Source of the DNA: an uncultured Actinomycetota bacterium
GTDB taxonomy: Bacteria; Actinomycetota; Actinomycetes; JAHEKZ01
Length of the DNA stretch: 64,000 nucleotides
Assembly: GCA_963718235.1 (NCBI GenBank)
Contig: CAVQYR010000002.1
Coordinates: 786,978-850,977, forward strand
Reading direction: 5' to 3'
The notes below the pieces were generated by a model that worked only from the letters and a program-made list of their open reading frames with translations, was not told the origin of the DNA and searched no databases. Below are positions 2,503-52,699 of the stretch, piece after piece. The position numbers and the translations under genes are program-made. The stretch's first letter is position 1. Every line of letters begins with the position of its first letter.

Positions 2503-2550
2503 GCGTGGCGTCTCGCCGACCACCGGGCGCCGCATAGGCTTCCGGTCACC

Positions 2551-3309
2551 ATGGACTCCACCGATACGACGCCACCGTCGTCGCCGGCCGGGGCCGCCGT
2601 CGGAGACATCCGCCCGTCAGGACACCGCCGCAAACGGTCCCACTCGGGCTCGTTCTGGCGAGAGCTCCCCGTACTCGTTCTGATCGCGCTGGCCTTGGCA
2701 CTGCTGCTCAAGACCTTCCTGGTGCAGGCTTTCTACATCCCCTCCGGGTCCATGGAGAACACTCTCCAGGTCGGCGACCGGGTCCTGGTCAACCGGATGG
2801 TCTACCGGCTGGGCGACATCGAGCGCGGTGACGTCATCGTCTTCAACGGCGTCGACTCCTGGACTCCGGAGGTGCAGATCGCCGAGCCCTCCAACCCGGT
2901 GGCCAAGGTCGTGTCGACGATCGCCGGAGCGTTCGGCTTCGCCACGCCCAACGAGAAGGACTTCATCAAGCGGGTCATCGGGATCCCCGGCGACCGGGTG
3001 AAGTGCTGCGACAAGCAGGGGCGGATCCAGGTCAACGGCGTGCCCCTGGACGAGACGTACCTGTTCCCCGGTGACAAGCCTTCGGAGCAGCAGTTCGACG
3101 TCGTCGTGCCCGAGGGCCGGGTCTGGGTGATGGGCGACCACCGAGGAGCGTCGTCGGACTCTCGCTACCACCTGGGTGACCCCGGGGGTGGGACGATCCC
3201 GATCGACCACGTGGTCGGCAAGGCCTTTCTGGTCGTCTGGCCGTTCAGCCACTTCGCCCCCCTGCCGGCTCCGGACACCTTCAGCCAGCCCGGTCTGACC
3301 GACCAGTGA
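2551..3309 (+). CDS. lepB: signal peptidase I
   Basis: N-terminal TM helix plus catalytic box IPSGSMENTL and later GDHR/SxDSR boxes. Confidence 0.8.
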   Translation: MDSTDTTPPSSPAGAAVGDIRPSGHRRKRSHSGSFWRELPVLVLIALALALLLKTFLVQAFYIPSGSMENTLQVGDRVLVNRMVYRLGDIERGDVIVFNGVDSWTPEVQIAEPSNPVAKVVSTIAGAFGFATPNEKDFIKRVIGIPGDRVKCCDKQGRIQVNGVPLDETYLFPGDKPSEQQFDVVVPEGRVWVMGDHRGASSDSRYHLGDPGGGTIPIDHVVGKAFLVVWPFSHFAPLPAPDTFSQPGLTDQ

Positions 3310-4050: not shown

Positions 4051-4563
4051 GTGCGGCCGCCGGTCGACCTCGCCACGCTGCCGAGACGGGCCTCGGTGCG
4101 GGTCGTGCTCAGCGCGCCCGGGCACGACCTGGTCCTGCTCCCCACGTGCGACCCCGTCCGCCCGTCGCGGTCTCCCTGGTGGGAGCTGCCCGGGGGCGGG
4201 ATCGAGCCGGCCGAGACGGCCGAGGCGGCGGCCGTCCGCGAGCTGGACGAGGAGCTCGGCGTCGCGATCGGCGTCGAGCAGGTCGTCGTGGGTCACTGGA
4301 CCAGGACCGTGGTCTACCCCAGGGCCGACGGGTGGTGGTGGCAGGACGAGACGGTGGTGCGGGTGGCGCTCGACCAGGTGCCTGCCTGGTCGTTGACCGG
4401 CCGCACACCGGAGGAGCAGGCAGCGCATGGGCCGCCTCGGTGGTGGTCGGTCGACCAGGTCAGGCACAGCGTCGAACGGTTCTTCCCCGACTCCCTGCCT
4501 ACCCTGCTGCCACGGTTTCTTCGCGGCGAACGAATCGCCGAGCCGCCGGTCGTGTTCTGGTGA
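4051..4563 (+). CDS. NUDIX hydrolase
   Basis: Nudix box GGGIEPAETAEAAAVRELDEELGV. Confidence 0.7.
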   Translation: MRPPVDLATLPRRASVRVVLSAPGHDLVLLPTCDPVRPSRSPWWELPGGGIEPAETAEAAAVRELDEELGVAIGVEQVVVGHWTRTVVYPRADGWWWQDETVVRVALDQVPAWSLTGRTPEEQAAHGPPRWWSVDQVRHSVERFFPDSLPTLLPRFLRGERIAEPPVVFW

Positions 4564-4594
4564 GCGGCAAAACCGCCTCGCCTACGCTGACCGT

Positions 4595-5087
4595 CATGGA
4601 ACCGGTGCGACGGCGCTCGGCGCGGGTGCTCGTCCTCGACGCCGACGACCGTCTGCTGCTGCTGCGTGGGGGAGATCCGGCGCGTCCGCAGTACGTCATC
4701 TGGCACGCCCCGGGCGGTGGGGTCGACGACGGCGAGGACGACGCCACGGCGGCGCGGCGTGAGCTGCGCGAGGAGACCGGACTGTCGGTCGACGCCGTCG
4801 GGGACCCGGTGTGGCTGCGCAGCCTGGTCTTCTCTTTCGACGGCGTGCTGTACGACCAGGATGAGGTGTTCTACTGCGTGCGGGTCGACGGACATGAGGT
4901 CGACGACAGTGGGCACACCGAGCTGGAGCGGCGCTACCTCAGCGGTCATCACTGGTTCTGTCTCGACGAGCTGCGCACCTGTCCGGATCTCCTTGCCCCA
5001 CCGGACCTCGTCGAGCGACTGACCGAGCTGCTGAGCGACGGACCGCCGTCGCTGCCGGTGCAGGTGCAGGGAGCGGTGCTGCCATGA
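4595..5087 (+). CDS. NUDIX hydrolase, second paralog
   Basis: Nudix box [24 protein letters not shown]. The Arg/Gly-rich upstream extension of ORF 4146 was rejected; start set at MEPVRRR. Confidence 0.65.
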
Positions 5088-5836
5088 CCGCGGGCCGGGC
5101 ACCCAGCGTGCGGGTCGAGCGAGCACTTATGCGTGACGGGCATGTCCTGGTGGCCGGCATGGACGAGGTGGGCCGGGGTGCACTTGCCGGTCCGGTGAGC
5201 GTCGGCGTCGCGGTGGTCGCCGATCCCGTCGGTCGAACGCCGTCGGGGCTGCGCGACAGCAAGCTGTTGACACCGGAGGCCCGGAACCGACTGGTCCCTC
5301 GGATCCGGCGCTGGTCGGTCGCGTCCGCGGTCGGCCATGCAGGAGCCGGCGAGATCGACGCGTTCGGGATCATCGCAGCGCTGCGCCTGGCTGGTCTTCG
5401 GGCCCTGGCGGCGCTGCCCCAGCGCCCCGACGTCGTGCTGCTCGACGGCAACCACGACTGGCTGTCGTCGTCCCCGCAGGGGTCGTTGTTCGACACCGAT
5501 GCCGCCGACGACGCGGAGGTCCCGTCCGTCGTGACCCAGGTCAAGGCCGATCTCCGCTGCTCGGTCGTGGCCGCGGCGAGCGTCCTGGCGAAGACCGAGC
5601 GCGACCACCACATGGTGGCTCTGTCCGCCAGTCATCCTCGCTATGCGTGGGCCGAGAACAAGGGCTACGCCGCGCCGGCCCACGTCCAGGCGTTGGCCCA
5701 GCACGGACCGACCGAGCTGCACCGACGATCGTGGCGACTGCCGGGCTGCGGCCCGGACGGCGGTGACGGCTGGAACCCGAGGTGGGAAGAGAGCCCTCAC
5801 GACGAACCGCCATCGACCACGATCGTTGTGCCATAG
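5084..5836 (+). CDS. rnhB: ribonuclease HII
   Basis: [14 protein letters not shown] active-site motif. ATGA overlap with the upstream NUDIX gene. Confidence 0.8.
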
Positions 5837-5844
5837 TGCGGCCC

Positions 5845-6219
5845 ATGACTGCAATCGCCCGGCTGGCCTGGACGGCCATCGACTGCCCCCGCCCGCGTCA
5901 GCTCGCCGGCTTCTACTCGGCCATCACCGGCTGGCCGATCGACGACAGCGCCGCCGACGACGAGTGGGTGACGTTGGTCAGCGACACGGGTGCAACCTTG
6001 GGCTTCCAGCGGGTCGACGACTACCAGCCGCCGCAGTGGCCCGGCCAGGAGCACCCGCAGCAGGCCCATCTGGACTTCGAGGTCGACGACCTCGACGCCG
6101 GTGAGGCCGCCGTACTGGCCATGGGTGCGCGTAAGCACGCGGTGCAGCCCGGTACCGACTTCCGGGTCTACCTCGACCCCGACGACCACCCGTTCTGCCT
6201 CATCCTGCCTGGCGGTTAG
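5845..6219 (+). CDS. VOC/glyoxalase-family protein
   Basis: Small protein with glyoxalase-like beta-alpha-beta-beta-beta pattern. Start chosen after the rnhB stop. Confidence 0.5.
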   Translation: MTAIARLAWTAIDCPRPRQLAGFYSAITGWPIDDSAADDEWVTLVSDTGATLGFQRVDDYQPPQWPGQEHPQQAHLDFEVDDLDAGEAAVLAMGARKHAVQPGTDFRVYLDPDDHPFCLILPGG

Positions 6220-6236: not shown

Positions 6237-8162
6237 TCAGCCCGAGGACGTGACGGCGATCCGGTCCAGGCTGGGCTCGGTGTTCGCCTGGTCGATCGAG
6301 AACGCGGTGACGTTCGTCCCGGCGAGCCGCACGGTCTGCCGACTGACCACGGGGACGATTGCGACCAGCTTCGAGGTGAGCCACTGGTCCAGGTGGGCCC
6401 AGCACGTTGGTGCCTGTGCAGGGAGAGCTGCGATGCATCGGTCGTAGTCGGACTGCACGCTGGGCACGTGCGTCACCGACATCCCCGCCCGCCGCAGTGC
6501 GCCGGGAGTCGCGCCCATGGCAGTGACCGCTAGGGCGCCGCCACGACCACTCGTGTCGGTGAGGAAGGGCTGGAACAGCGAGCCAGTGCCCGGGTAGTCG
6601 GCAATCCAGCCGAAGAAGCAGGCCACCATGTGGCTGGTGGGGCGGGAGCAGTCCTTGCGCTCGAACCGAAAGTCCGTGACGACGAACCGCGAACGAAGGC
6701 CGATGACCTCCATGGCGTCGGTGAGCTCATCCATCGGAGCGCCTCCGATGATCACCGGCCGGCAGGCCGCTGCCACGCAGTGGCCGTCTCGCCAGTAGCG
6801 GGACTTGCGCATCTCCGCCAAGGCCAGCTGTTGACGTGAGGCGGATGAGTCCACGAGGTCGGGTTGCCACCCGGCGAGCAGGTTGTCGCTGAGGGCATTG
6901 GGGACGAGATGGGAGGTCACCGGCCCGAACTGCACCCCCGTCTCGGCCAGCGACTCCTGGAGTCCCTGCCGGTCCAACGCAAGCGCGTAGGCGCGTCGCA
7001 CGTGCACGTCGTCGAAGGGTGGCTGAGCGAGGTTGAAGGTCACCCAGCTTGTTCCGTTGCTCTCGCTTCGGTAGACCCGTGCGCGCTCCTCCGGCGTGCG
7101 GTACCGGGCGAGCTCCTCGAGCGACGGGTCCTCACCGATCACGGTGTCCACGGAACCGTCGCGCAGGCCCTCGTACGGGTTCTGCCGGGGCTCGATCGTG
7201 ATCTCGATCCGGTCCGGATAGGCCGGCCGGTTCGGGTCGGTGGCGGAGTCCCACGACGGGTTCCTGACCAGGACGAGCCGCCCGGGGCTGGGCGGGTCGA
7301 ACCACCACGCCGGAGTGAAACCGGCGGCCGGCTGCTGCTGGTCGGGCGCAAGCGTGAAGTCGACCTGGTCAATCCCCTCGATCATGTACGGACCGGTCGA
7401 CACCTGGAAGGGGCCGTAGCCGTCGTTGAGCGGCCGCTCCGGGTGCTCCTGGTCGAGCTGGAGCGTGTGGCCGGTCGCGACGCCGAGAGGGGCCGTGGGG
7501 TCGCTCGGGGACGGGGGGATCGGCGCACTGAACGCCATGGCCATGAGGTCGACGATCGAGCGGTCGGGACGTGTCTCGCGCAGCTGCAGGGTGTGGTCGT
7601 CGACCGCCACAGCACCGGCGATGGAGTCCGAGCGGCCGGCCACGAACGCCTCGTAGCCCTCGAGCAGTGGTTTCAGGTAGCCGAGTCCGGGGCCGTTTGC
7701 GGCCGCTGACCGCTCCAGCGCGCGCACGAAGTCGGCGGCGGTGACCTCGACGTCCTCGAGGGGTGGGGAGTAGTGGATCCCGGATCGCAGGTGGAAGGTC
7801 CAGGTGCGACCGTCTACCGACACCGTCGGCGGCCCCTCGGCAAGGTCGGGGACCGCCCGGAACCCTTCGAAGCCCGGCAGGCCGCGGAAGGTCATGAGGG
7901 TGCGCTGCAGGCAGCAGCGCAGCACCTCGAACTGGTCGAACATGTACGCGGCCTCCGGGTCGAAGCCGGCGTACGCGGGTTGGGGCATCGCCACGTGCAG
8001 CGTGCCACCAGGCGACGGCTCGGTCACCGCAGCCGCAGCGCGAGGCGAGGCGGTGCCGAGCGGTGGAGCAGCGACGGCCGCGACAGCGACCAGCCCAGTG
8101 ACCAGCACCGCCAGCGCCAGCAAGGCAGTGGGCACGGGTCGCCACATCCCTCGGGCGGCCAT
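6237..8162 (-). CDS. extracellular solute-binding protein, family 5 (DppA/OppA-like), signal peptide/TM at N-terminus
   Basis: Hydrophobic N-terminus. SBP_bac_5-type motif NLAQPPFDDVHVRRAYALALDR. Start set at MAARGM, which overlaps the stop of the upstream cyclase gene; the alternative start is 8189. Confidence 0.6.
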   Translation of the reverse strand: MAARGMWRPVPTALLALAVLVTGLVAVAAVAAPPLGTASPRAAAAVTEPSPGGTLHVAMPQPAYAGFDPEAAYMFDQFEVLRCCLQRTLMTFRGLPGFEGFRAVPDLAEGPPTVSVDGRTWTFHLRSGIHYSPPLEDVEVTAADFVRALERSAAANGPGLGYLKPLLEGYEAFVAGRSDSIAGAVAVDDHTLQLRETRPDRSIVDLMAMAFSAPIPPSPSDPTAPLGVATGHTLQLDQEHPERPLNDGYGPFQVSTGPYMIEGIDQVDFTLAPDQQQPAAGFTPAWWFDPPSPGRLVLVRNPSWDSATDPNRPAYPDRIEITIEPRQNPYEGLRDGSVDTVIGEDPSLEELARYRTPEERARVYRSESNGTSWVTFNLAQPPFDDVHVRRAYALALDRQGLQESLAETGVQFGPVTSHLVPNALSDNLLAGWQPDLVDSSASRQQLALAEMRKSRYWRDGHCVAAACRPVIIGGAPMDELTDAMEVIGLRSRFVVTDFRFERKDCSRPTSHMVACFFGWIADYPGTGSLFQPFLTDTSGRGGALAVTAMGATPGALRRAGMSVTHVPSVQSDYDRCIAALPAQAPTCWAHLDQWLTSKLVAIVPVVSRQTVRLAGTNVTAFSIDQANTEPSLDRIAVTSSG

Positions 8163-9883
8163 CAGCCCACCTCTGCGACGACGACCCACGGTCGCCCTGC
8201 GTCGTCGACCGCCACCGCCACGGGTGCTCCGTCGACGGGAAACGTCCCCGTGACCGACCCGTCCGTCGGGTCAAGGGAGACCACATGCTCCGAACCTCCG
8301 CAGGTGACCCAGACCTGCGTCGACGTCACCGCGAGATCGGTAGGGGCATCACAGCGAGCGCCGAGCTCGAGACGCAGTCGGGAGTCTCCGCCGGCCGAGA
8401 GCGAGAGCAGAGTGTCGTTGGGCTGGCTGGCCACCCAGACCGTCCCGTCCGGGGCGGTGGCGATGGCGGACGGCACGGCCCCGCCGGTTGAGAAGGCGGA
8501 GACCTCCGGTCGGCCACCGGATGTCTCGACCTTGAACACCGAGGGGCTCCGGCCCGCCGCCACCCAGGCGGTGTCTCCTCCTGCGACGACCGCAACGTCG
8601 ACCGGTCCGGACGCGGCGGGCACGGGGACCGAGGCGACCGAGCTGGTCGTGGTGTCGAAGCGTGTGACCACGGCGTCGCGAGTGGCCACGAACCACACGG
8701 CTCCGTCGGCGGCGTCCGTGGCTGACGTTCCGTCCGGCACGATGAACCCGGCGGGAGCAACCCCAGCGCCGCCGGACTGCAGTACGCCGACCCTTCGGTT
8801 GGGGTCGGAGCTGAAGCCAAAGGTGACCCAGACCTGGTCGGCCGTGTGGGAGAGGCCCGTCGGCGGGGCCGGTGTGCCGTAGACACGGACCGAGGCATCG
8901 TCGGTGACCACGACCTCCGAGACCGTCTGTGAGCGAACGTCTGCAACCCAGACCTTGCCGTCACCGGTGGTCACCGCCTGGGGTGATCCGCCGGGCTGAA
9001 GGGCGACGGCCAGGTCGAACCCCGAGCCGTCAGCGGCAACGCGCGCCACAGAGTGGGCCGAGGGAACGACGGTGGTGCTGCGGGTGGCTCGCCACCCGAA
9101 CCAGCCACCGATCACCAGCACCAGCACGGCGGCTACCACGACCGGCCACCAACGACGCCGCGCGCTCGATGCGGCGGTCGCCCCGACCGAGGCGCGAAGA
9201 GCAGCACCCTCTTCGGGCGGGAGCGGCTCAGGGCGGTCCACGTTGTCCACGGAGGTGACCTCGTACACCTGCCAGGGCTGCTCGACGCCCTTCAGTGTCT
9301 GGACTCCGTGGTCCGTCAGCCCGAACCCGGCGCCACGGGTCAGCTCAGCCACGGTGCTCGTGACGAGGACGTCGCCAGCGGTGGCCAGTCCCATCACCCG
9401 CGCGCCGACCACCACCGTGATGCCCGAGAGCTTGCCATCGGCCGGCTCACACTCACCGAAGTGGACGCCGGCGCGGATGCCGACCCCGAGCGCTCGCATG
9501 TCGTCGGACAGCAGGCAGGCGCAGCGAACGGCCGAGCCGGGGTCTGCGAACGAGGCGAAGAACCCATCACCTGCGGTGTCCAGCTCCTTGCCGCCGAGCT
9601 CCTTGAGGCGACGGCGCACGATCCGGTGGTGCTCGGCCACGAGACTGCGCCAACCCTTGTCGGCGAGCTCTTCGGCGAGCCGGGTGGAGTCGACGATGTC
9701 GGTGAACAACACCGCCGCAAGGACCCTGCCCGCACGCGCCACCCCGGCATTGTGTCCCAGCGGCAGGCGTCTGGTGCCCGTTTGACCACCGGATGTCCCC
9801 ACCTCTGACCCCGGGCGCCCACGGTCGTACGCTGCCCGCGGGACCACTTCCTGGCCCTCGAGCAGAGAGGACAGCAAGGTCAT
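8162..9883 (-). CDS. receptor-type class III adenylate/guanylate cyclase: N-terminal cyclase domain, one TM helix, C-terminal beta-propeller repeats
   Basis: VLFTDIVDSTRL...DTAGDGFFASF...VGIRAGVHFGE cyclase homology domain. Hydrophobic segment WWPVVVAAVLVLVIGGWFGW. Repeated VWV/strand-rich units afterwards. An alternative GTG start near 9742 would leave a promoter gap to the divergent gene. Confidence 0.6.
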   Translation of the reverse strand: MTLLSSLLEGQEVVPRAAYDRGRPGSEVGTSGGQTGTRRLPLGHNAGVARAGRVLAAVLFTDIVDSTRLAEELADKGWRSLVAEHHRIVRRRLKELGGKELDTAGDGFFASFADPGSAVRCACLLSDDMRALGVGIRAGVHFGECEPADGKLSGITVVVGARVMGLATAGDVLVTSTVAELTRGAGFGLTDHGVQTLKGVEQPWQVYEVTSVDNVDRPEPLPPEEGAALRASVGATAASSARRRWWPVVVAAVLVLVIGGWFGWRATRSTTVVPSAHSVARVAADGSGFDLAVALQPGGSPQAVTTGDGKVWVADVRSQTVSEVVVTDDASVRVYGTPAPPTGLSHTADQVWVTFGFSSDPNRRVGVLQSGGAGVAPAGFIVPDGTSATDAADGAVWFVATRDAVVTRFDTTTSSVASVPVPAASGPVDVAVVAGGDTAWVAAGRSPSVFKVETSGGRPEVSAFSTGGAVPSAIATAPDGTVWVASQPNDTLLSLSAGGDSRLRLELGARCDAPTDLAVTSTQVWVTCGGSEHVVSLDPTDGSVTGTFPVDGAPVAVAVDDAGRPWVVVAEVG

Positions 9884-10208
9884 GAGTGCTGAGGACCTCG
9901 AACGCTACGAGGCCGACCTGGAGCTGCAGCTGTACCGCGAGTACCGCGACGTGGTCGGCCTGTTCGCCTACGTGGTGGAGACCGAGCGGCGCTTCTACCT
10001 CACGAACCACGTCGACCTGCAGGTGCGGGGCACCGACACCGGTGAGGTGTTCTTCGAGGCCACCATGAGCGACGCCTGGGTGTGGGACATGTACCGGCCG
10101 GCTCGCTTCGTCAAGAACGTCAAGGTCCTGACCTTCAAGGACGTCAACGTCGAGGAGCTGGCCGCCACCGACCTCGAGCCCCCCAAACCGCTCGGTTTCG
10201 ACCGCTGA
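9882..10208 (+). CDS. DUF2469-family protein conserved in Actinobacteria
   Basis: Small acidic protein at the conserved position between rnhB and yraN. Confidence 0.65.
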   Translation: MSAEDLERYEADLELQLYREYRDVVGLFAYVVETERRFYLTNHVDLQVRGTDTGEVFFEATMSDAWVWDMYRPARFVKNVKVLTFKDVNVEELAATDLEPPKPLGFDR

Positions 10209-10323: not shown

Positions 10324-10683
10324 GTGCGGGCCAAGGACGGACTCGGACGGTACGGCGAGCAGGTGGCGGCCCAGCATCTGGTCGACCAGGGCCTGGTCGT
10401 GCTGGACCGCAACTGGCGGTGCGAGGTCGGCGAGATCGACATCGTGGCCCGCGACGGTGACACGCTGGTGGTGTGTGAGGTCAAGACCCGCAGCGGCTCC
10501 GGGTACGGCTCGCCACTGGAGGCGGTCACCGAGCAGAAGGCCCGGCGACTCCGCCGGTTGGCGGCTCGCTGGGTCCAGGCCAGCGGGCTGCACCCGTCGG
10601 CGATCAGGATCGACGTCGTCGCCGTGCTCGCCTCGGGGCGGGGGCCGGCCTCGGTGCAGCACGTGCGCGGAGTCGTCTGGTGA
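10324..10683 (+). CDS. yraN: YraN-family (UPF0102) endonuclease
   Basis: GEIDIVARDGDTLVVCEVKTR motif. GGAGGTG RBS before the GTG start. Confidence 0.75.
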   Translation: MRAKDGLGRYGEQVAAQHLVDQGLVVLDRNWRCEVGEIDIVARDGDTLVVCEVKTRSGSGYGSPLEAVTEQKARRLRRLAARWVQASGLHPSAIRIDVVAVLASGRGPASVQHVRGVVW

Positions 10684-12209
10684 CGGTCGCCCGCACCCGA
10701 ACCGTGACCCTGGCCGGCGTCCACGGGCATCTGGTCGACGTCGAGGCCGATGTGAGTCCGGGCCTGCCCAGGACGGTGCTGGTCGGCCTGCCCGACCCGG
10801 CGGTCAACGAGGCCCGGGACCGGGTGCGCGCGGCGCTGGTGAACTCAGGGCTGACCTGGCCGGACGCCCGGATCACGGTCAGCCTGTCCCCGGCCTGGGT
10901 CCGCAAGCGCGGCAGTGGGCTCGACCTCGCCGTCGCCTGCGCGATCCTGGCCGCCACCGAGCAGGTGCCGACGGCGGGCGTCGGCAGCTCGGTGCTGCTG
11001 GGTGAGCTGGGGCTCGACGGAGCGGTGCGCCCGGTTCGGGGGGTGCTGCCGATGGTCCTGGCCGCTCTCGAGCGCGGGCACGACCACGTGGTCGTGGCCG
11101 CCGGCAACGCGGCCGAGGCCGCCCTCGTCCCGGACCTGAAGGTCGTCGCCGTCGACCGGCTGGTCGACCTGGTCGCCGTGCTCCGGGGCGAGGCCGAGCC
11201 AGTCCTCGTGCCGCGCACGCAGTGCCCGCCGAGCCACGATCCGGTGCCCGACCTCGCCGACGTCGTCGGGCAGCATGACGCCCGTCGAGCCCTGGAGATC
11301 GCAGCAGCCGGAGGGCACCACCTGCTGCTGCAGGGCGCGCCGGGCGCCGGCAAGACCCTGCTCGCGCAACGGCTGCCCGGGCTGCTACCTCCGCTCGACG
11401 AGCGGCAGCGGCTCGAGGTCACCGCGGTGCACTCGGTGGCCGGCGTCCTCCCACCGGACCGCCCACTGGTCGCGCACCCGCCGTTCCAGGCGCCGCACCA
11501 CACCGCCACCGGTCCGGCTCTGGTCGGCGGCGGCAGCGGTGTGCCGAGACCGGGGGCCGTATCGCTCGCTCACCGCGGCGTGCTCTTCCTCGACGAGGCG
11601 CCGGAGTTCTCCCCTCGTGTCCTGCAGACCCTGCGCCAACCGCTCGAGAGCGGAGTGGTCACCGTCGCTCGGGCCGAGGCCGTTGTGCACTACCCGGCGA
11701 GCTTCCAGCTGGTCCTGGCGGCCAACCCCTGCCCTTGCGGTCGCCTCGTCGGTCGCGGGCTCGACTGCACGTGCACCCCCATCCAGAAGATGCGGTACAC
11801 CGCGCGTCTGTCCGGGCCGCTGCTGGACCGGATCGACCTGCGGGTGGTGGTCCATCCGCTGACCCGTGAGCAGCTGGCCGAGGGGCTGGCCGGCGAGCCC
11901 AGTGACCGCGTGCGAGACCGGGTCGCAGTGGCCCGCGATCGGGCCGCCCGGCGCCTGACCGGCACCCCGTGGGTGACCAACGCCGCGGTACCTGGACGTG
12001 AGCTGCGCGGGCGCTTCCGGGTCGACCCTGACGCCATGGGCGACGTGTACGACCAGGTGGGCCGTGGAGCGCTGACGGCTCGCGGGGTCGACCGGGTACT
12101 GCGGATCGCCTGGACCCTGGCCGACCTCACCGATCGTGACCGACCCGGGCCGGCCCAGGTGGGCGCCGCACTGCGGCTGCGGCAGGGAGAGTCGGCATGG
12201 GCGGCGTGA
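10680..12209 (+). CDS. comM: YifB/ComM family Mg-chelatase-like AAA+ ATPase
   Basis: GTGA overlap with yraN. N-terminal Lon-like domain, Walker A GAPGAGKT, C-terminal Mg-chelatase domain. Confidence 0.8.
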   Translation: MTVARTRTVTLAGVHGHLVDVEADVSPGLPRTVLVGLPDPAVNEARDRVRAALVNSGLTWPDARITVSLSPAWVRKRGSGLDLAVACAILAATEQVPTAGVGSSVLLGELGLDGAVRPVRGVLPMVLAALERGHDHVVVAAGNAAEAALVPDLKVVAVDRLVDLVAVLRGEAEPVLVPRTQCPPSHDPVPDLADVVGQHDARRALEIAAAGGHHLLLQGAPGAGKTLLAQRLPGLLPPLDERQRLEVTAVHSVAGVLPPDRPLVAHPPFQAPHHTATGPALVGGGSGVPRPGAVSLAHRGVLFLDEAPEFSPRVLQTLRQPLESGVVTVARAEAVVHYPASFQLVLAANPCPCGRLVGRGLDCTCTPIQKMRYTARLSGPLLDRIDLRVVVHPLTREQLAEGLAGEPSDRVRDRVAVARDRAARRLTGTPWVTNAAVPGRELRGRFRVDPDAMGDVYDQVGRGALTARGVDRVLRIAWTLADLTDRDRPGPAQVGAALRLRQGESAWAA

Positions 12210-13331
12210 GCGGGTCGAACGGCCAGCTCGACCCGGATCGGCGGGCCCGTGTCGTTCTCGCCCGGATCGCCGAGCCGGGTGACTCCGCCCTGGTCGAGGC
12301 GGTGCGGATCCGGGGGGCTCGCTCCGTGCTCGAGGCGATCGGTGAGCATCGTTCCGGCCTGCCCAACGAGCGGGGTTACCTCACCCGCCTCGACGGGCTC
12401 GACCCCCGCCGTGACCACGAGCAGCTGACCGACTGCGGCGCGCGCGTGGTCGTCCCCGGTGACCTCGAGTGGCCCAGCCAGCTCGACGACCTCGGGGCCA
12501 CCACGCCCCTGGCGCTCTTCGTCCGCGGCTGCGACCTGCGCCGATGCGTCCTGCGGTCCGCAGCCGTGGTCGGTGCACGCGCAGCAACGACCTACGGGGT
12601 GAACGTCGCCAGTGACCTGGCCGCCGGGCTCTCCGACCGAGGCTGGGCGGTCGTGTCCGGCGGGGCGTACGGGATCGACGCGGCGGCTCACCGCGGGGCG
12701 CTGGCAGCGGGCGGGTTGACGGTGGCCGTCCTCGCCTGCGGGGTCGACGTGGCCTACCCGCGTGGCCATGTGGCCCTGCTCGAACGCGTGGCCGCGGAGG
12801 GTGTGGTCGTGAGCGAGCTCCCACCGGGATGTCACCCGACCAAGAGCCGGTTCCTGACCAGGAACCGGCTGATCGCGGCCCTGTCCCGGGGCACCGTCGT
12901 GGTCGAGGCGGCCCACCGGTCGGGCGCGTTGAACACTGCGGCCGCGGCCCGTCGCCTGGGCCGCCCCCTGCTGGTGGTCCCTGGTCCGGTCACGTCGCCC
13001 CTGTCGGCCGGCACTCATCGACTCCTGCGCGCCCATCGTGAGGAGTCGGTCGTGGTCACCGGAGCCGACGAGGTCGTCGAGGAGCTCGGCCCCCTGGGCA
13101 GCTTGGCCCCGGAGCCTCAGGCTGGCCACCTCGCCGTCCGACGGGCTCGCTCCGCAGGTCGCGGCCACGCTCGAGGCCCTTCCGGTCCGTCGGGGGGTGC
13201 CCATCGAGCGCCTGGCCCGCACGGCAGGTGTGCCCGCTGACGCGGCGGCCCGAGCCCTGGACCAGCTGAGGCTGCTAGGTCTGGCACTCGTCGACGACGG
13301 CCGCTGGCGGCTGGCCGAACGGCCGGAGTGA
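12197..13331 (+). CDS. dprA: DNA processing protein DprA/Smf; reading frame breaks near 13090-13135, either a frameshift/pseudogene or a sequence error
   Basis: Rossmann domain GGAYGIDAAAHRGAL...SRFLTRNRLIAALS in frame 2 up to ~13130. The conserved C-terminal winged-helix tail (LEALPVRRGVPIERLARTAGV...GRWRL) continues in frame 0 to 13331. Confidence 0.6.
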
Positions 13332-46859: not shown

Positions 46860-46871
46860 GAGGGGGATGAC

Positions 46872-46976
46872 ATGGAAGACATCAAGACCGCAGTCATCTC
46901 TCGGGTCTTGATCAGCGCCGGCACGGTCGTGACTCTCGTCTCGGTCGTCGGTGCAGGTCGGAAATGGTGTCACTGA
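46872..46976 (+). CDS. 34-aa hydrophobic peptide P2 (MEDIKTAVISRVLISAGTVVTLVSVVGAGRKWCH)
   Basis: AGAGGGGGA RBS. Conserved C-terminal LVSxVGAGxKWxH shared with P1. Its stop overlaps the ATG of the GGDEF-EAL gene. Confidence 0.45.
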   Translation: MEDIKTAVISRVLISAGTVVTLVSVVGAGRKWCH

Positions 46977-49102
46977 CACCACGCCGTGGAGGGGTCGCCG
47001 GCTCGCCGGCGGCCCCTCGTCGTCATGACACGTTGCCGCTCGAGGTCTACATCGCCACGGTGTCGGTCATCGGTGTCTCCCTGCTCGCCCTGACCTGGTG
47101 GTTGGTCCCACCTGCCTTGATGTTCAGCGCCGCGACCTGGACCGATGCCACGTCGCCGGTGACCGTCGTCCTGCTGCTCGGCATCGCGCTCGTGCTCGGT
47201 GAGCTGCGCCCGATCCCGATCTCGCGCGGAGGCGACCTCACCGACTGGATCTCCATCTCGACCACGTTCGCTGTGGCCCTGATCGTCCTGGGGCCGGTCA
47301 GTGTCGCCGTCGTCGCGCAGGCCGCGGCCGTCCTGATCGACGACGTGCGGATGCGCCGCGCGTTCAGCAAGGTGGCGTTCAACGTCGGCCAGTACGTCAT
47401 CACGATCATCGCGGCCCGGGTGGTCTACAGCCTGGTCTCGGGCACCCCCTTCGCGGCGCCGGCCACCACCTTCGAACCGACACCGGCAGCACTGCTCGGT
47501 GCGATCGCGGCGGGAGCCATGTTCGTGCTCGTCAACCACGGGCTCGTGTCGACCGTGGTCGCACTCCAGAGCCGGCAGCCGATCCTGGTGATCATGAGCG
47601 GTGACATCCGCTTCCAGTCCATGACCAACGGGGTCCTGGCGGCGCTCGGTCCCATCGCCGCGGTCGCCGTGCAGCAGCAACCGCTCATGCTGCCCCTCCT
47701 CATCGCACCGGTCCTGGCGGTGTACCGCAGCGCCGACCTGGCGATCCAGAAGGAGCGACAGGCGCACCACGACACCCTGACCGAGCTGCCGAACCGCGAG
47801 CTCTTCCGCGACAAGGCGGAGCGGGCGCTGGCCGAGTCCCAGCGGTCGGGCGTGCCGCTCGCGGTGATGATGATCGACCTGGACCACTTCAAGGAGATCA
47901 ACGACACCCTGGGCCACCACATCGGCGACGACCTGATCCGAGAGGTCGCCACCAGGCTGGACCAGGCGCGTCCCATCGGCTCCACGGTGGCCCGCCTGGG
48001 CGGTGACGAGTTCGCCGTCCTGCTGCCCGACGTACCAGACCTCTCGGTGGCCGAGGAGGTCGCCACGTACATGCTCTCGGTGCTCGGCAAGTCGCTGTCC
48101 GCCGGCGGGGTGCGGCTCGTCGTCCAGGCCAGCATCGGGATCTCGCTGGCGCCCGACCACGGGCACGACGTGCACACCCTGATGAAGAACGCCGACATCG
48201 CGTTGTACGAGGCCAAGCGGGAGCGAGCCAGGTTCTGCGCCTACCAGCCCGACGAGGACGTCCACACGCCGCAGCGGCTCGCGATCCTGGCCGACCTGCG
48301 CACCGCCGTGGACGAGGGGCAGCTCTTCCTGGAGTTCCAGCCCAAGATCGACCTGGCGACCGACACCGTGATGGGTGCGGAGGCCCTGGTGCGGTGGAAC
48401 CACCCCACGCGGGGCATCATCAGGCCGGACGACTTCATCCCCCTCGCCGAGAACACCGGGCTGATCACCCCGATCACCTGGTTCGTCATCGAGCGGTCCC
48501 TGCAGCAGTGCCGCTACTGGCGTGACCAGGGCCTGCCCCTCGGGGTGGCGGTGAACCTCTCGGTGCGCCACCTCAGTGACATGAGCCTGCCCGACCGGAT
48601 CGGCGTCGCCCTCGAACGCTGGGGTGTGCCGGCGTCGGAGCTCACCGTCGAGGTCACCGAGAGCAGCATCATGACCGACCCCCAGCGCGCGATGGGGGTC
48701 ATCCGACACCTGCGCCAGGTGGGGATCGGTGTCGCGATCGACGACTACGGGACCGGCCACGCGTCGTTGACGTACCTCAAGCGTCTCGAGATCGACGAGC
48801 TGAAGATCGACAAGTCGTTCATCATGCACATGTCCGCCGAGGGCAACGACCCGATCATCGTCCGGTCGACCATCGAGCTGGGGCACAACCTCGGACTCCG
48901 GATCGTGGCCGAGGGCGTCGAGGACGCCGACACGTTGGGCTGGCTGCGCGAGGTGGGCTGTGACGTCGCCCAGGGCTACCACATGGCCCGACCGATGGCC
49001 CCGGAGGCCGTCGAGGAGCTGGCCCGACGCCGGCTGGGCGAGCCGACGGAGACGCCCGTGCTGTCCAGCGGCGGACGACTGCGCCTGGTGGGAACGGCAT
49101 GA
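46964..49102 (+). CDS. polytopic membrane sensor fused to GGDEF diguanylate cyclase and EAL phosphodiesterase domains
   Basis: About 8 predicted TM helices. Intact RLGGDEFAV and EALVRW motifs. Confidence 0.8.
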   Translation: MVSLTPRRGGVAGSPAAPRRHDTLPLEVYIATVSVIGVSLLALTWWLVPPALMFSAATWTDATSPVTVVLLLGIALVLGELRPIPISRGGDLTDWISISTTFAVALIVLGPVSVAVVAQAAAVLIDDVRMRRAFSKVAFNVGQYVITIIAARVVYSLVSGTPFAAPATTFEPTPAALLGAIAAGAMFVLVNHGLVSTVVALQSRQPILVIMSGDIRFQSMTNGVLAALGPIAAVAVQQQPLMLPLLIAPVLAVYRSADLAIQKERQAHHDTLTELPNRELFRDKAERALAESQRSGVPLAVMMIDLDHFKEINDTLGHHIGDDLIREVATRLDQARPIGSTVARLGGDEFAVLLPDVPDLSVAEEVATYMLSVLGKSLSAGGVRLVVQASIGISLAPDHGHDVHTLMKNADIALYEAKRERARFCAYQPDEDVHTPQRLAILADLRTAVDEGQLFLEFQPKIDLATDTVMGAEALVRWNHPTRGIIRPDDFIPLAENTGLITPITWFVIERSLQQCRYWRDQGLPLGVAVNLSVRHLSDMSLPDRIGVALERWGVPASELTVEVTESSIMTDPQRAMGVIRHLRQVGIGVAIDDYGTGHASLTYLKRLEIDELKIDKSFIMHMSAEGNDPIIVRSTIELGHNLGLRIVAEGVEDADTLGWLREVGCDVAQGYHMARPMAPEAVEELARRRLGEPTETPVLSSGGRLRLVGTA

Positions 49103-51058: not shown

Positions 51059-52417
51059 TCAGCTGCGGGGAGCCGAGCCCTGGTCAGAGAGCAGGTTGTC
51101 CAGGACGGGGCCGAGCACCGAGGCGATGGCCCGCGCCTTGCGCACCTGCTGGCGGGTCCAGGCCGTCTCCTCGGAGTGCGAGCACTCCAGCAGCCCGACT
51201 GCGCGGCCCGCGCTGGCCGCGGGCACCATCATCAGACTGCGCCAGCCGTGGGTGCCCATCCAGGCGATCTCGGCCGGGTCGGCCTCAGGGGCGCTCGCCA
51301 GGACCTGCGCCATCTGCATGCTCGAGAGCACGGCTCGGCTCGTGGCGTAGTCGGCGAGGGGGTAGCGGACCCCTTCGGGCTTCCATCGACCCGGTTCGAC
51401 CGCCTCGAGCCACTGGCCGGTCGGGTCGACGAACGACAGGTCCGCCTGGTCGCAGCCGAGCACGTCGGCGACCATGACCATGAGTCGGGCGAGGGTGTCC
51501 AGGTCGGCGGCGTCGGACAGCCGGCCGATGAGGTGCTCCAGCGTGGGCGTGCCGTTGACCTCGGAACCGCGACCACCCACGGCCATGGCCCGTGCGAACG
51601 AGGACTCGCACGTGAGCCGCGCCGCCTCGCTCGCCTCCTCGAACTGCGCGACCGGCATGCCGATCACCCAGCCCTGCGCCTCGGCGACGTCCAGCTCGGC
51701 CAGGACGTAGAGGTCCTCCAGGCTCTCGACGCCCTCGGCGCACACCGCGGCGCCCACCTGGGCCGCGTAGCGCACGATCGCCTCGACCATGGCGGCCTTT
51801 CCGGGCTCGGACTCGACCCCGGTGACCAGCGAGCGGTCGAGCTTGAGCAGGTCGGGCGAGAGCGCCATGACGCGCTGGAGCCCCGCGTACCCCTCGCCGA
51901 CGTCGTCGACGGCGATCCGGGCACCGCGCCCGCGAAGGGCCTCCAGCACGAGGTGGACCCGGTCGGGGTCTTCGACCGCCTCAGTCTCGGTGATCTCGAA
52001 CTGCAGCCCGGTGAGGTCGAACGGCAAGACGTTCTGCAACTCGTTGGAGCCGAGGACCGAGGGGCTGACGTTGACCGACAGGAGCACGCCGTCGGGTCGG
52101 TTCGCGCCGAGCTGGAGTGCTCGGTCGACGGCTCGCGCCTCGAGCATGGGTCCGAGCCCGACGCTGTGCGCCATGGTGAACCAACGGTCAGGGGTGAGCG
52201 AGGGGCCGCCATGGGTGAACCGGGCCAGCGCCTCGTAGGACAGGACCCGCCCGGTCGCCAGGCCGAGGATGGGTTGGACGACGATGCTCGGCGAACCGGC
52301 GTGCAGGGCCGTGACGACCAGCGAACGCACCTCGTCGCTGCCCAGGTCGACCGCCGGGTTCGAAGGGGGAGGTGTGGGCAGCGAGGAGCCGGACGTGCTC
52401 GTCGTGGTCATCGACAT
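51059..52417 (-). CDS. EAL-domain c-di-GMP phosphodiesterase with C-terminal GAF domain
   Basis: YEALAR EAL motif near the N-terminus. C-terminal GAF-like region. Confidence 0.65.
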   Translation of the reverse strand: MSMTTTSTSGSSLPTPPPSNPAVDLGSDEVRSLVVTALHAGSPSIVVQPILGLATGRVLSYEALARFTHGGPSLTPDRWFTMAHSVGLGPMLEARAVDRALQLGANRPDGVLLSVNVSPSVLGSNELQNVLPFDLTGLQFEITETEAVEDPDRVHLVLEALRGRGARIAVDDVGEGYAGLQRVMALSPDLLKLDRSLVTGVESEPGKAAMVEAIVRYAAQVGAAVCAEGVESLEDLYVLAELDVAEAQGWVIGMPVAQFEEASEAARLTCESSFARAMAVGGRGSEVNGTPTLEHLIGRLSDAADLDTLARLMVMVADVLGCDQADLSFVDPTGQWLEAVEPGRWKPEGVRYPLADYATSRAVLSSMQMAQVLASAPEADPAEIAWMGTHGWRSLMMVPAASAGRAVGLLECSHSEETAWTRQQVRKARAIASVLGPVLDNLLSDQGSAPRS

Positions 52418-52699
52418 CCGCTCGTCCTCACCCCTCACTGCGCTGGTCTCTGCTCACGCTCTGCCCGGCCCGTGTGCAGCGCCGAGCGCTGACCCGGTCC
52501 GGATGCGGAGGTGAGGGCCCCGCGGGACCCTCATGGGCCTTGGAGTCGGCAGGTGCACGGCCGCGATGTAGCGCCCGACGGGGGAGTGTGCCAGAGGTTA
52601 CGCCGATCGGGTGAGGCCCGCACGACCCTGGACAGGAGCGGTGCCGGGCCCTACCGTGGCGTCGCCCTGCGCCGGACGGCGCGGCGAACGGAGGCAGTG

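Follow-up and report, generated by a model that had tools for sequence, protein, structure and literature searches.

The window considered here, a stretch of 64,000 nucleotides from contig CAVQYR010000002.1 of an uncultured Actinomycetota bacterium, carries on its minus strand two adjoining genes. The first (gene A) encodes a putative receptor in which a class III nucleotidyl cyclase domain is joined through a single transmembrane helix to a β-propeller, and the second (gene B) encodes a family-5 (cluster C) solute-binding protein (SBP). The structure of the pair, its conservation in other genomes, and the existence of natural fusions make it probable that the two genes encode one sensing device, composed of an N-in/C-out single-pass receptor cyclase and a dedicated exported SBP. 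A sequence-only reading of the window had described a stop/start-coupled minus-strand pair, and both open reading frames (ORFs) are present where it had placed them, but the 4-nucleotide ATGA overlap that it reported at 8162 is actually TGATG. The junction reads GAGGTGGGCTGATGG, the TGA and the ATG share one base, and a Shine-Dalgarno-like element lies just upstream of the ATG of the SBP; this stop/start arrangement is typical of translational coupling. The features of the pair are collected in Table 1.

Table 1. Features of the receptor-SBP gene pair, in window coordinates
Feature	Position	Strand	Description and basis
Receptor nucleotidyl cyclase gene (gene A)	8162..9742; longest ORF to 9883	minus	526 amino acids (aa) from GTG 9742, maximum 573 aa; ORF and translation
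Class III cyclase homology domain, Rv1900c/LipJ-like, predicted cytoplasmic	9248..9730	minus	residues 52–212; Pfam, phmmer, structure match
Juxtamembrane linker	9155..9247	minus	residues 213–243; Pro/Ala-rich, poorly conserved, consensus mostly "x"
Single transmembrane helix	9083..9154	minus	residues 244–267, RRR just before; hydropathy and helix in AlphaFold2 (AF2) model
Seven-bladed β-propeller, predicted extracytoplasmic and non-catalytic	8165..9055	minus	residues 277–573; related to Vgb-lyase, YVTN, NHL, and PknD propellers
Translational-coupling junction	8160..8173	minus	GAGGTGGG 8173..8166, TGA 8164..8162, ATG 8162..8160; read from sequence
Family-5 (cluster C) SBP gene (gene B)	6237..8162	minus	641 aa; Pfam SBP_bac_5; no linked transporter
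SBP signal peptide or membrane anchor	8070..8138	minus	residues 9–31; hydropathy and N-terminal survey; AF2 helix 12–31
Intergenic region between gene A and the divergent DUF2469 gene	9743..9881	.	follows from the revised receptor start

It should be noted that residue numbers of the receptor (Asp62, Val158, 244–267, 277–573, and others) are those of the longest ORF, which begins at ATG 9883. This ATG is probably not the true start because it overlaps the ATG of the divergent DUF2469 gene (9882), residues 1–47 are not conserved, and homologues measure 510–530 aa. GTG 9742 is preferred since a JGI homologue of >90% identity (P0241) begins with VARAGRVL, corresponding to this codon. The public NCBI/ENA copy of the receptor (P0001) has 516 aa and starts at 9712 with VLFTD, so that the first conserved residues are cut off; the start called by JGI on a near-identical sequence, GTG 9742, lies 11 residues further upstream. 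The intergenic region that this revision opens is likely to be the promoter region of a two-gene operon; at the pair, no Rfam match, no noteworthy promoter or terminator, and no σ70-like match was detected.

The class III cyclase homology domain that had been assigned to the first gene is well supported. Pfam Guanylate_cyc (PF00211) matches residues 57–203 with 29.7 bits (cut-off 21.9), phmmer matches the domain to Rv1900c (1ybt) with an E-value of 2.3e-34, and the AF2 model of the domain superposes on 1ybu with a TM-score of 0.90 and an rmsd of 1.4 Å at ~42% identity; Ma1120 also superposes. In an alignment of 121 family members, the metal-binding residues Asp62 (118/121) and Asp106 (121/121) and the transition-state residue Arg162 (121/121) are found in all homologues aligned at those positions, and the phosphate-binding Lys198 is found in 115. 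The conservation of the metal-binding Asp pair, the Arg, and the Lys argues for a working enzyme. Three other positions of the catalytic center are occupied by noncanonical residues: the position of the adenine-specifying Lys is Asp102 (Asp in 120 of the 121 homologues), that of its partner Asp is Lys151 (Lys in 92), and that of the transition-state Asn is Val158 (Val in 94, His in 22, and Asn in 2). The earlier designation of the protein as a receptor adenylyl cyclase therefore holds for the class III cyclase domain but not for the Lys-Asp pair that specifies adenine, in place of which there is Asp102/Lys151. Because this pair is swapped, the nucleotide is not predictable and nucleotidyl cyclase is the preferred name; cAMP is taken as its default product but is unproven. 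An acidic residue at the first base-specifying position is a feature of guanylyl cyclases (PMC4215837), and the Asp/Lys pair might be the mark of a clade of guanylyl or other non-adenylyl cyclases. The conserved clade with swapped base-specifying residues deserves to be flagged, and its product is of interest.

The replacement of Asn by Val and of Lys/Asp by Asp/Lys would also fit a pseudo-enzyme, a domain that serves for dimerization or for nucleotide binding and gives no cyclic-nucleotide signal; the closest solved relative, Rv1900c, is reportedly a weak enzyme. This appears unlikely, given the near-invariance of the metal-binding Asp pair, the Arg, and the phosphate-binding Lys. Furthermore, the lack of the transition-state Asn is compatible with activity, since Ma1120 has Ala at this position and is active as a cyclase (PMC4215837). 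Genes for cyclic-nucleotide-binding proteins are found close to the pair at only three loci, and these fit weakly with cyclic-nucleotide signaling.

Further members of this cyclase clade, which have Asp where Lys would be expected, show other architectures, including cyclase-transmembrane segment-binding domain proteins with a Bmp/PnrA-type domain (PF02608; P0102, P0107, and P0110) and a protein (P0119) with the cyclase, a transmembrane segment, and a Cys-rich ectodomain of no known type. In Gaiellaceae and other Actinomycetota metagenome-assembled genomes (MAGs), two to four closely related cyclase-domain genes form tandem arrays with a spacing of ~1.3 kb (L034, L041, L042, and L074).

The AF2 model of the receptor (pLDDT 87) comprises the cyclase domain, a helical stretch containing the transmembrane segment, and a seven-bladed propeller, with pLDDT values below 50 in stretches 182–190 and 200–212, around the juxtamembrane linker and the transmembrane helix. 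The cyclase domain is carried on a flexible, unconserved linker of ~30 residues, in which no HAMP domain, signaling helix, or Pfam domain was found. Residues 244–267 are the sole segment of the receptor with 19-residue Kyte-Doolittle windows of at least 1.6; the N-terminal side of this helix is richer in Arg, and fewer basic residues follow it. A cyclase domain that uses ATP must presumably be cytoplasmic. The location of the propeller outside the cell, on which the sequence-only reading had staked its interpretation, is supported by the single transmembrane segment, by the Arg-rich N-terminal side, and by fusions (described below) in which an exported SBP follows the propeller without a second transmembrane segment. 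In addition, Cys511 and Cys528 in the last blades either co-occur or are jointly absent across the family, as would be expected for an extracellular disulfide.

The propeller is matched by Pfam Vgb_lyase (PF24684) at residues 388–567 (54.7 bits, cut-off 50) and, in phmmer searches, by the propeller of PknD (1rwi, E 1.4e-5) and the PknD-derived Pizza designs (E 1e-15). Foldseek matches include Vgb lyase (2z2n/2z2p, TMt ~0.75, identity 15–16%), an archaeal YVTN S-layer propeller, and AztD. The blades are marked by seven conserved Trp residues spaced 40–45 residues apart, and the columns that are at least 85% conserved contain Trp, Pro, and Gly only, plus one Val. Identification of the propeller as a Vgb-type enzyme was rejected because there are no conserved polar residues and the score of the NCBIfam Vgb(B) model, 21.9 bits, is far below its cut-off of 600. 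In a fused relative (P0245, see below), residues 267–449 weakly match TIGR03866, a PQQ-dependent-catabolism-associated β-propeller family (35 bits, cut-off 287). This family is encoded alongside genes for ABC transport and would thereby give a further hint of propeller-SBP association.

The assignment of the second gene product as an SBP_bac_5 protein with an N-terminal signal or anchor is upheld by a Pfam score of 124.8 bits (cut-off 32.4) and a hydrophobic helix at residues 9–31. Its AF2 model (pLDDT 87, pTM 0.86) is a complete cluster-C binding protein, the closest structure being OppA2 of S. clavuligerus (2wop/2wok; 25% identity, TMt 0.78–0.79, phmmer E 9.7e-33), followed in Foldseek by OppA, MppA, and DppA; the closest relatives by structure bind peptides, arginine, or murein peptides. 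Eight Cys residues are highly conserved, six of them in all 71 aligned sequences. The window copy has no lipobox Cys, and in a survey of the N termini of 120 relatives a lipobox-like motif was found in 73. Many charged and aromatic residues are invariant, which suggests one conserved ligand class. Both the SBP and the propeller are thus located outside the membrane. Neither the receptor nor the SBP reaches the cut-off of any NCBIfam model.

A promoter of its own and an unrelated ABC partner elsewhere had been named beforehand as findings that would separate the SBP from the receptor. Since the stop and start codons share one base, there is no room for an intergenic promoter of the SBP. No ABC permease or ATPase gene is adjacent to it, no Opp/Dpp-type permease was found by Pfam among the ORFs scanned across the 64-kb window (the pair region and 39 further ORFs), and in a comparison of 33 related loci no permease family recurred.

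Receptor relatives number several hundred and are almost all from uncultured Actinomycetota, the best match among species representatives being a Nocardioidaceae MAG with 47% identity. Many contig sizes recur in both the top matches of the receptor and those of the SBP. To assess pairing, one genome per species was searched with the receptor alignment, and the loci obtained were then searched with hidden Markov models (HMMs) of the cyclase, propeller, and SBP families. All 20 cyclase-propeller genes that reach a propeller HMM score of 147 or more and have usable flanking sequence, from 19 species-level loci, have a family-5 SBP relative within 500 bp or fused to them. When loci from other (exact) look-ups are added, the count becomes 25 of 25, with the SBP downstream on the same strand in seven cases, convergent in six, upstream in three, and fused in nine. 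The paired loci of the 19 species-level set are 32–60% identical and have unrelated flanks. The orientation of the genes therefore changes while their adjacency is kept, which favors function over inherited operon structure. An all-against-all comparison of the flanks of 33 loci, including that of the window, revealed no third conserved partner gene, only the cyclase, propeller, and SBP being kept, and the neighbor genes in the window recur in none of the other loci compared. The pair occupies different genomic sites in relatives; it travels as a unit, and the rnhB-DUF2469 site is particular to this genome. Its presence in relatives, which had been proposed as a test, was thus found in the form of a unit that moves between unrelated neighborhoods. 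Each of the three outcomes that the sequence-only reading had listed as refuting was looked for, and the results favored its interpretation.

When the comparison is reversed, 13 of the 23 metagenomic SBP relatives with scores of 440 or more share their locus with a cyclase or propeller, and most of the remaining 10 lie on contigs that offer little flanking sequence. Several loci contain two or three tandem SBPs (L020, L087–L089, L096, and L168), sometimes beside one receptor. Linkage of receptor and SBP genes across species, with the SBP accompanied by signaling and not by transport genes, is the pattern by which an SBP-dependent receptor is recognized, and the present pair shows it. Large proteins (~1150–1200 aa) with zinc-ribbon, Guanylate_cyc, AAA_16, and TPR domains recur near the module (L002, L010, L012, L092, L003, and L168); genes for large cyclase-AAA_16-TPR proteins are present in just 4 of the 33 loci compared.

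The closest association of the two components is seen in natural fusions. Uninterrupted ORFs of 1049–1081 aa with the order cyclase, transmembrane segment, propeller, and family-5 SBP are present in five loci (L011, L017, L018, L022, and L024). In P0245 (1044 aa, NCBI MGZ8662573.1), Guanylate_cyc at residues 12–154 is followed by one hydrophobic segment at 201–228, the propeller, and SBP_bac_5 at 572–960, and P0335 (1056 aa) has the cyclase, one transmembrane segment, the propeller, and SBP_bac_5 in that order. The fusion junction of P0245 is ...LWLSVGASPSEH-IGGTLTV.... In the fusions, the GGTL start of the mature SBP, a motif that also opens the mature SBP of the window, comes within ~5 residues of the last blade with no signal peptide between; a tether of this length would force the propeller and SBP domains into contact. 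The source names of two such proteins (P0245 and P0247) are merely ABC transporter or peptide/nickel substrate-binding protein. A 128-aa protein with weak PAS matches is encoded directly upstream of the fused gene in L001 (7553–7939) and L002 (4153–4539).

Frameshifts in long-read MAGs (ENA ERZ250394xx/ERZ250395xx and MFD contigs; L002, L004, L006, and L021) split genes and generate false fusions. One apparent fusion (P0208) was discarded as such an artifact, as were the Arg-rich "proteins" P0106, P0058, P0057, and P0116. Examples of this kind (P0208, P0106, and P0058) are what could be cited for the proposition that the adjacency is chance or hitch-hiking in one lineage and that the fusions are assembly artifacts. 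The proposition is effectively refuted by the adjacency in 19 species-level loci with 32–60% identity and unrelated flanks, by the intact fusion ORFs, whose in-frame junctions are identical across independent NCBI, ENA, and JGI assemblies, and by the comparison of the 33 loci.

The propeller and SBP are also found with outputs other than a cyclase. When the propeller by itself was searched against 1.84 billion representatives, 3117 matches were obtained at E ≤1e-3, and Pfam analysis of selected full-length matches identified three further architectures. Three proteins have the order Pkinase, transmembrane segment, and propeller (P0263, P0267, and P0362); in P0364 (1117 aa) the same arrangement is extended by a fused SBP_bac_5 domain; and in P0357 (1078 aa, an intact ORF on its contig) and P0342, Trans_reg_C and BTAD domains of the SARP type precede the transmembrane segment, propeller, and SBP_bac_5. 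Each of these proteins has one hydrophobic segment between the output domain and the propeller, and their propeller HMM scores (207–260) are within the range of the SBP-linked cyclases, with the exception of P0362 (159), which has no SBP in its neighborhood. Two tandem SBP genes belonging to the subfamily of the window SBP (summed HMM scores ~550 and ~519) lie ahead of the gene for P0263, and the gene for P0267 is preceded, in two independent contigs, by a 649-aa SBP_bac_5 gene. A small, divergent, soluble Pkinase gene (286–303 aa) is located just upstream of the SBP in L168 (167–1027, minus strand) and in both P0267 contigs, and the kinase version may include its product as a third component.

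The propeller-plus-SBP unit appears to behave as a portable extracytoplasmic sensor module. One input unit is combined with three interchangeable outputs, which indicates a sensor in which information flows from outside to inside. It is quite possible, although we advance this broader proposal tentatively, that the propeller and family-5 SBP form an unrecognized portable sensor cassette of soil Actinomycetota and Chloroflexota with at least three outputs: cyclic nucleotide, Ser/Thr phosphorylation, and a membrane-anchored SARP-type activator.

These observations can be accommodated in a mechanism in which the dedicated SBP, which would be lipid-anchored in most relatives and would serve no adjacent ABC importer, captures a small ligand; from its similarity to OppA2, MppA, OppA, and DppA, the best guess is a peptide-like or amino-group-bearing compound. 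The ligand-loaded SBP would then dock on the propeller through physical contact, and docking would alter the pairing or clustering of receptors so that the cytoplasmic cyclase domains could come together and make a cyclic nucleotide. Class III cyclase domains need dimerization to form their active sites. Because the receptor has no HAMP domain or signaling helix, control by proximity or dimerization, as in PknD/PknB-type kinases, is most likely, rather than a helical piston.

Several points weigh against this interpretation. The substitutions at the Asn and Lys/Asp positions of the cyclase leave its activity and product uncertain. The fused SBP of P0245 is only 26% identical to that of the window (E 3e-16), and the (Rosetta-stone) evidence from fusion therefore applies at the level of the family and not of the subfamily. 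Every carrier is an uncultured MAG, and some of these genomes were assembled from error-prone long reads. Within the SBP family, the more distant proteins occur alone or beside other genes, for example Peptidase_S9 in L086. Finally, 12 cyclase-propeller genes of a sister clade, with a divergent propeller (score ≤136), have no SBP nearby, so that the propeller apparently can work alone; a partner gene common to all 11 loci of this clade was not found.

The distant SBP-family members that are not beside cyclases, and the fold and sequence that the SBP shares with the transport proteins OppA, DppA, and MppA, would be expected if it were an ordinary ABC-importer protein with a permease elsewhere, either only co-regulated with the receptor or having a dual role as DppA does for Tap; orphan SBPs that use distant permeases do exist, MppA being one. 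However, an Opp/Dpp permease is neither found in the scanned ORFs of the window nor conserved in the 33 loci, the 25 adjacencies persist through changes in gene order, the SBP is covalently fused to the receptor in many species, and the same SBP subfamily is found beside kinase-propeller genes. A role purely or partly in import consequently seems improbable.

The sister clade, in turn, would fit a propeller that itself binds or acts on the signal, with the SBP as an accessory that accepts or donates ligand, acts as a scaffold, or is an inhibitor released by ligand. The Pfam match of the propeller is to the Vgb lyase family, and AztD, its structural match of rank 44, passes zinc to an SBP (PMC6689063). 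Nevertheless, the conserved columns of the propeller are just structural Trp, Pro, and Gly (plus the one Val) and do not include a polar set for catalysis or ligand binding, and the NCBIfam Vgb models remain far below cut-off; the SBP, by contrast, is rich in invariant charged and aromatic residues. We regard this arrangement as rather unlikely and favor a device in which the SBP is the ligand-binding component and the propeller its docking site.

The sequence-only reading had described the pair as an interruption of an otherwise conserved lepB-rnhB/DUF2469-yraN-comM-dprA gene string. Pfam identifies the flanking genes as it had named them: Peptidase_S26 (signal peptidase) at 2503–3309, RNase HII at 5084–5836, and DUF2469 at 9882–10208, followed by UPF0102/YraN (10324–10683), a ComM-type Mg-chelatase (10680–12209), and DprA (12197–13240), and then by xerC, a sigma factor, rpsB, tsf, frr, and cdsA. 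However, the backbone is not otherwise intact, as a NUDIX gene (4146–5087, plus strand), whose stop overlaps the start of rnhB (5084–5087), and a Glyoxalase_6 gene (5782–6219, plus strand) are also interspersed in the lepB-rnhB-DUF2469 string. Insertion of the pair by a mobile element is unsupported: direct or inverted repeats flanking the pair were limited to imperfect matches at chance level, there is no GC step at the pair (GC of the region ~0.70), and the GC3 of the two genes (0.82–0.86) is at the low end of, but within, the range for other ORFs of the window (0.81–0.94).

Elsewhere in the window, two nearby genes relate to cyclic di-GMP, a GGDEF-EAL gene at 46871–49102 (plus strand, 743-aa ORF) and an EAL-GAF gene at 51059–52453 (minus strand, 464-aa ORF). 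The region from ~32900 to 59400 is a dense cluster resembling those for polyamine/arginine catabolism, with two DAO oxidoreductases, two class-III aminotransferases, four aldehyde dehydrogenases, an SBP_bac_8 protein, an arginase-family enzyme, a saccharopine dehydrogenase, an amino-acid permease, and a PucR regulator.

The statement of the sequence-only reading that the combination of cyclase, propeller, and SBP was undescribed agrees with our literature searches, in which no description of it was found. The general principle, in which a free SBP reports its ligand to a membrane receptor, is shared with Tap-DppA, ChiS-CBP, TlpB-AibA, LuxPQ, TorTS, and GlnH/GlnX/PknG. Family-5 SBPs are among those that signal, DppA through Tap, CBP through ChiS, and AibA through TlpB, and the genes of SBPs that act on sensor kinases usually adjoin the signaling gene (PMC8050422). 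The SBP-stimulated receptors covered by this 2021 review are chemoreceptors, sensor kinases, GGDEF/EAL proteins, and one Ser/Thr kinase system, and they include no cyclase and no propeller as ligand-binding domain (PMC8050422). If the proposed device is real, class III cyclases would be a fifth class of SBP-stimulated receptor and the propeller a new type of docking domain, one input module would be wired to three different outputs, and many proteins annotated as "ABC transporter substrate-binding protein" would be receptors of ~1040–1120 aa.

The individual components can be compared with better characterized proteins. Rv1900c (LipJ; 1ybt/1ybu) resembles the receptor in its class III cyclase fold, ~42% identity, and a shared TAGDGF core, but it is a soluble protein with an N-terminal α/β-hydrolase domain and has no transmembrane segment, propeller, or SBP; the NCBIfam LipJ model gives the receptor 150 bits against a cut-off of 800. 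In Rv1900c, the canonical Asn position is occupied by His, and the base-specifying pair, Asn/Asp, differs from the Asp/Lys of the window receptor. OppA2 (2wok/2wop), the closest solved relative of the SBP, binds arginine and peptides according to the PDB titles. Its gene is part of a biosynthetic cluster and comes with no receptor partner. The window SBP exceeds it in length by ~80 residues and has insertions specific to its subfamily as well as four additional Cys pairs.

Single-pass receptors with an ectodomain of periplasmic-binding-protein fold are known among eukaryotic cyclases, namely the natriuretic peptide receptor guanylyl cyclases and the GRESAG4 adenylyl cyclases of trypanosomes, and the catalytic domain of GRESAG4 weakly matches that of the receptor (1fx4, E 3.6e-6). 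In these proteins, a type-I binding fold is fused N-terminally and the cyclase is C-terminal, whereas here the cyclase is N-terminal, a propeller lies between, and the SBP is of cluster C and usually separate. A propeller that makes direct contact with an SBP has a precedent in AztD of Paracoccus denitrificans, which hands zinc directly to the SBP AztC (PMC6689063). AztD (6ck1) is a structural match of the propeller (E 2.6e-11), but it is a soluble metallochaperone for a zinc ABC importer, with neither a membrane anchor nor a signaling output.

The closest parallel in architecture is PknD (Rv0931c) of M. tuberculosis, which, like the receptor, has a cytoplasmic catalytic domain, a linker, one transmembrane segment, and an extracytoplasmic propeller, the two propellers being related in sequence. 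We know of no identified ligand of the PknD propeller and of no demonstration of signaling between PknD and PstS2. The proposed sensor cassette would suggest that PknD-type propellers in general, including that of M. tuberculosis PknD with PstS2, are docking platforms for SBPs rather than direct sensors of ligands, and it would offer a concrete idea of what they bind. The pknD gene is in a predicted operon with pstS2, an SBP gene (PMC3322341). PknD differs from the receptor in its Ser/Thr kinase output, in its six-bladed NHL propeller (1rwi) as opposed to seven blades, and in that the neighboring SBP is a phosphate-binding PstS and not a family-5 protein. Kinase siblings with the window's own propeller subfamily exist, and the window protein itself has a cyclase in place of the kinase.

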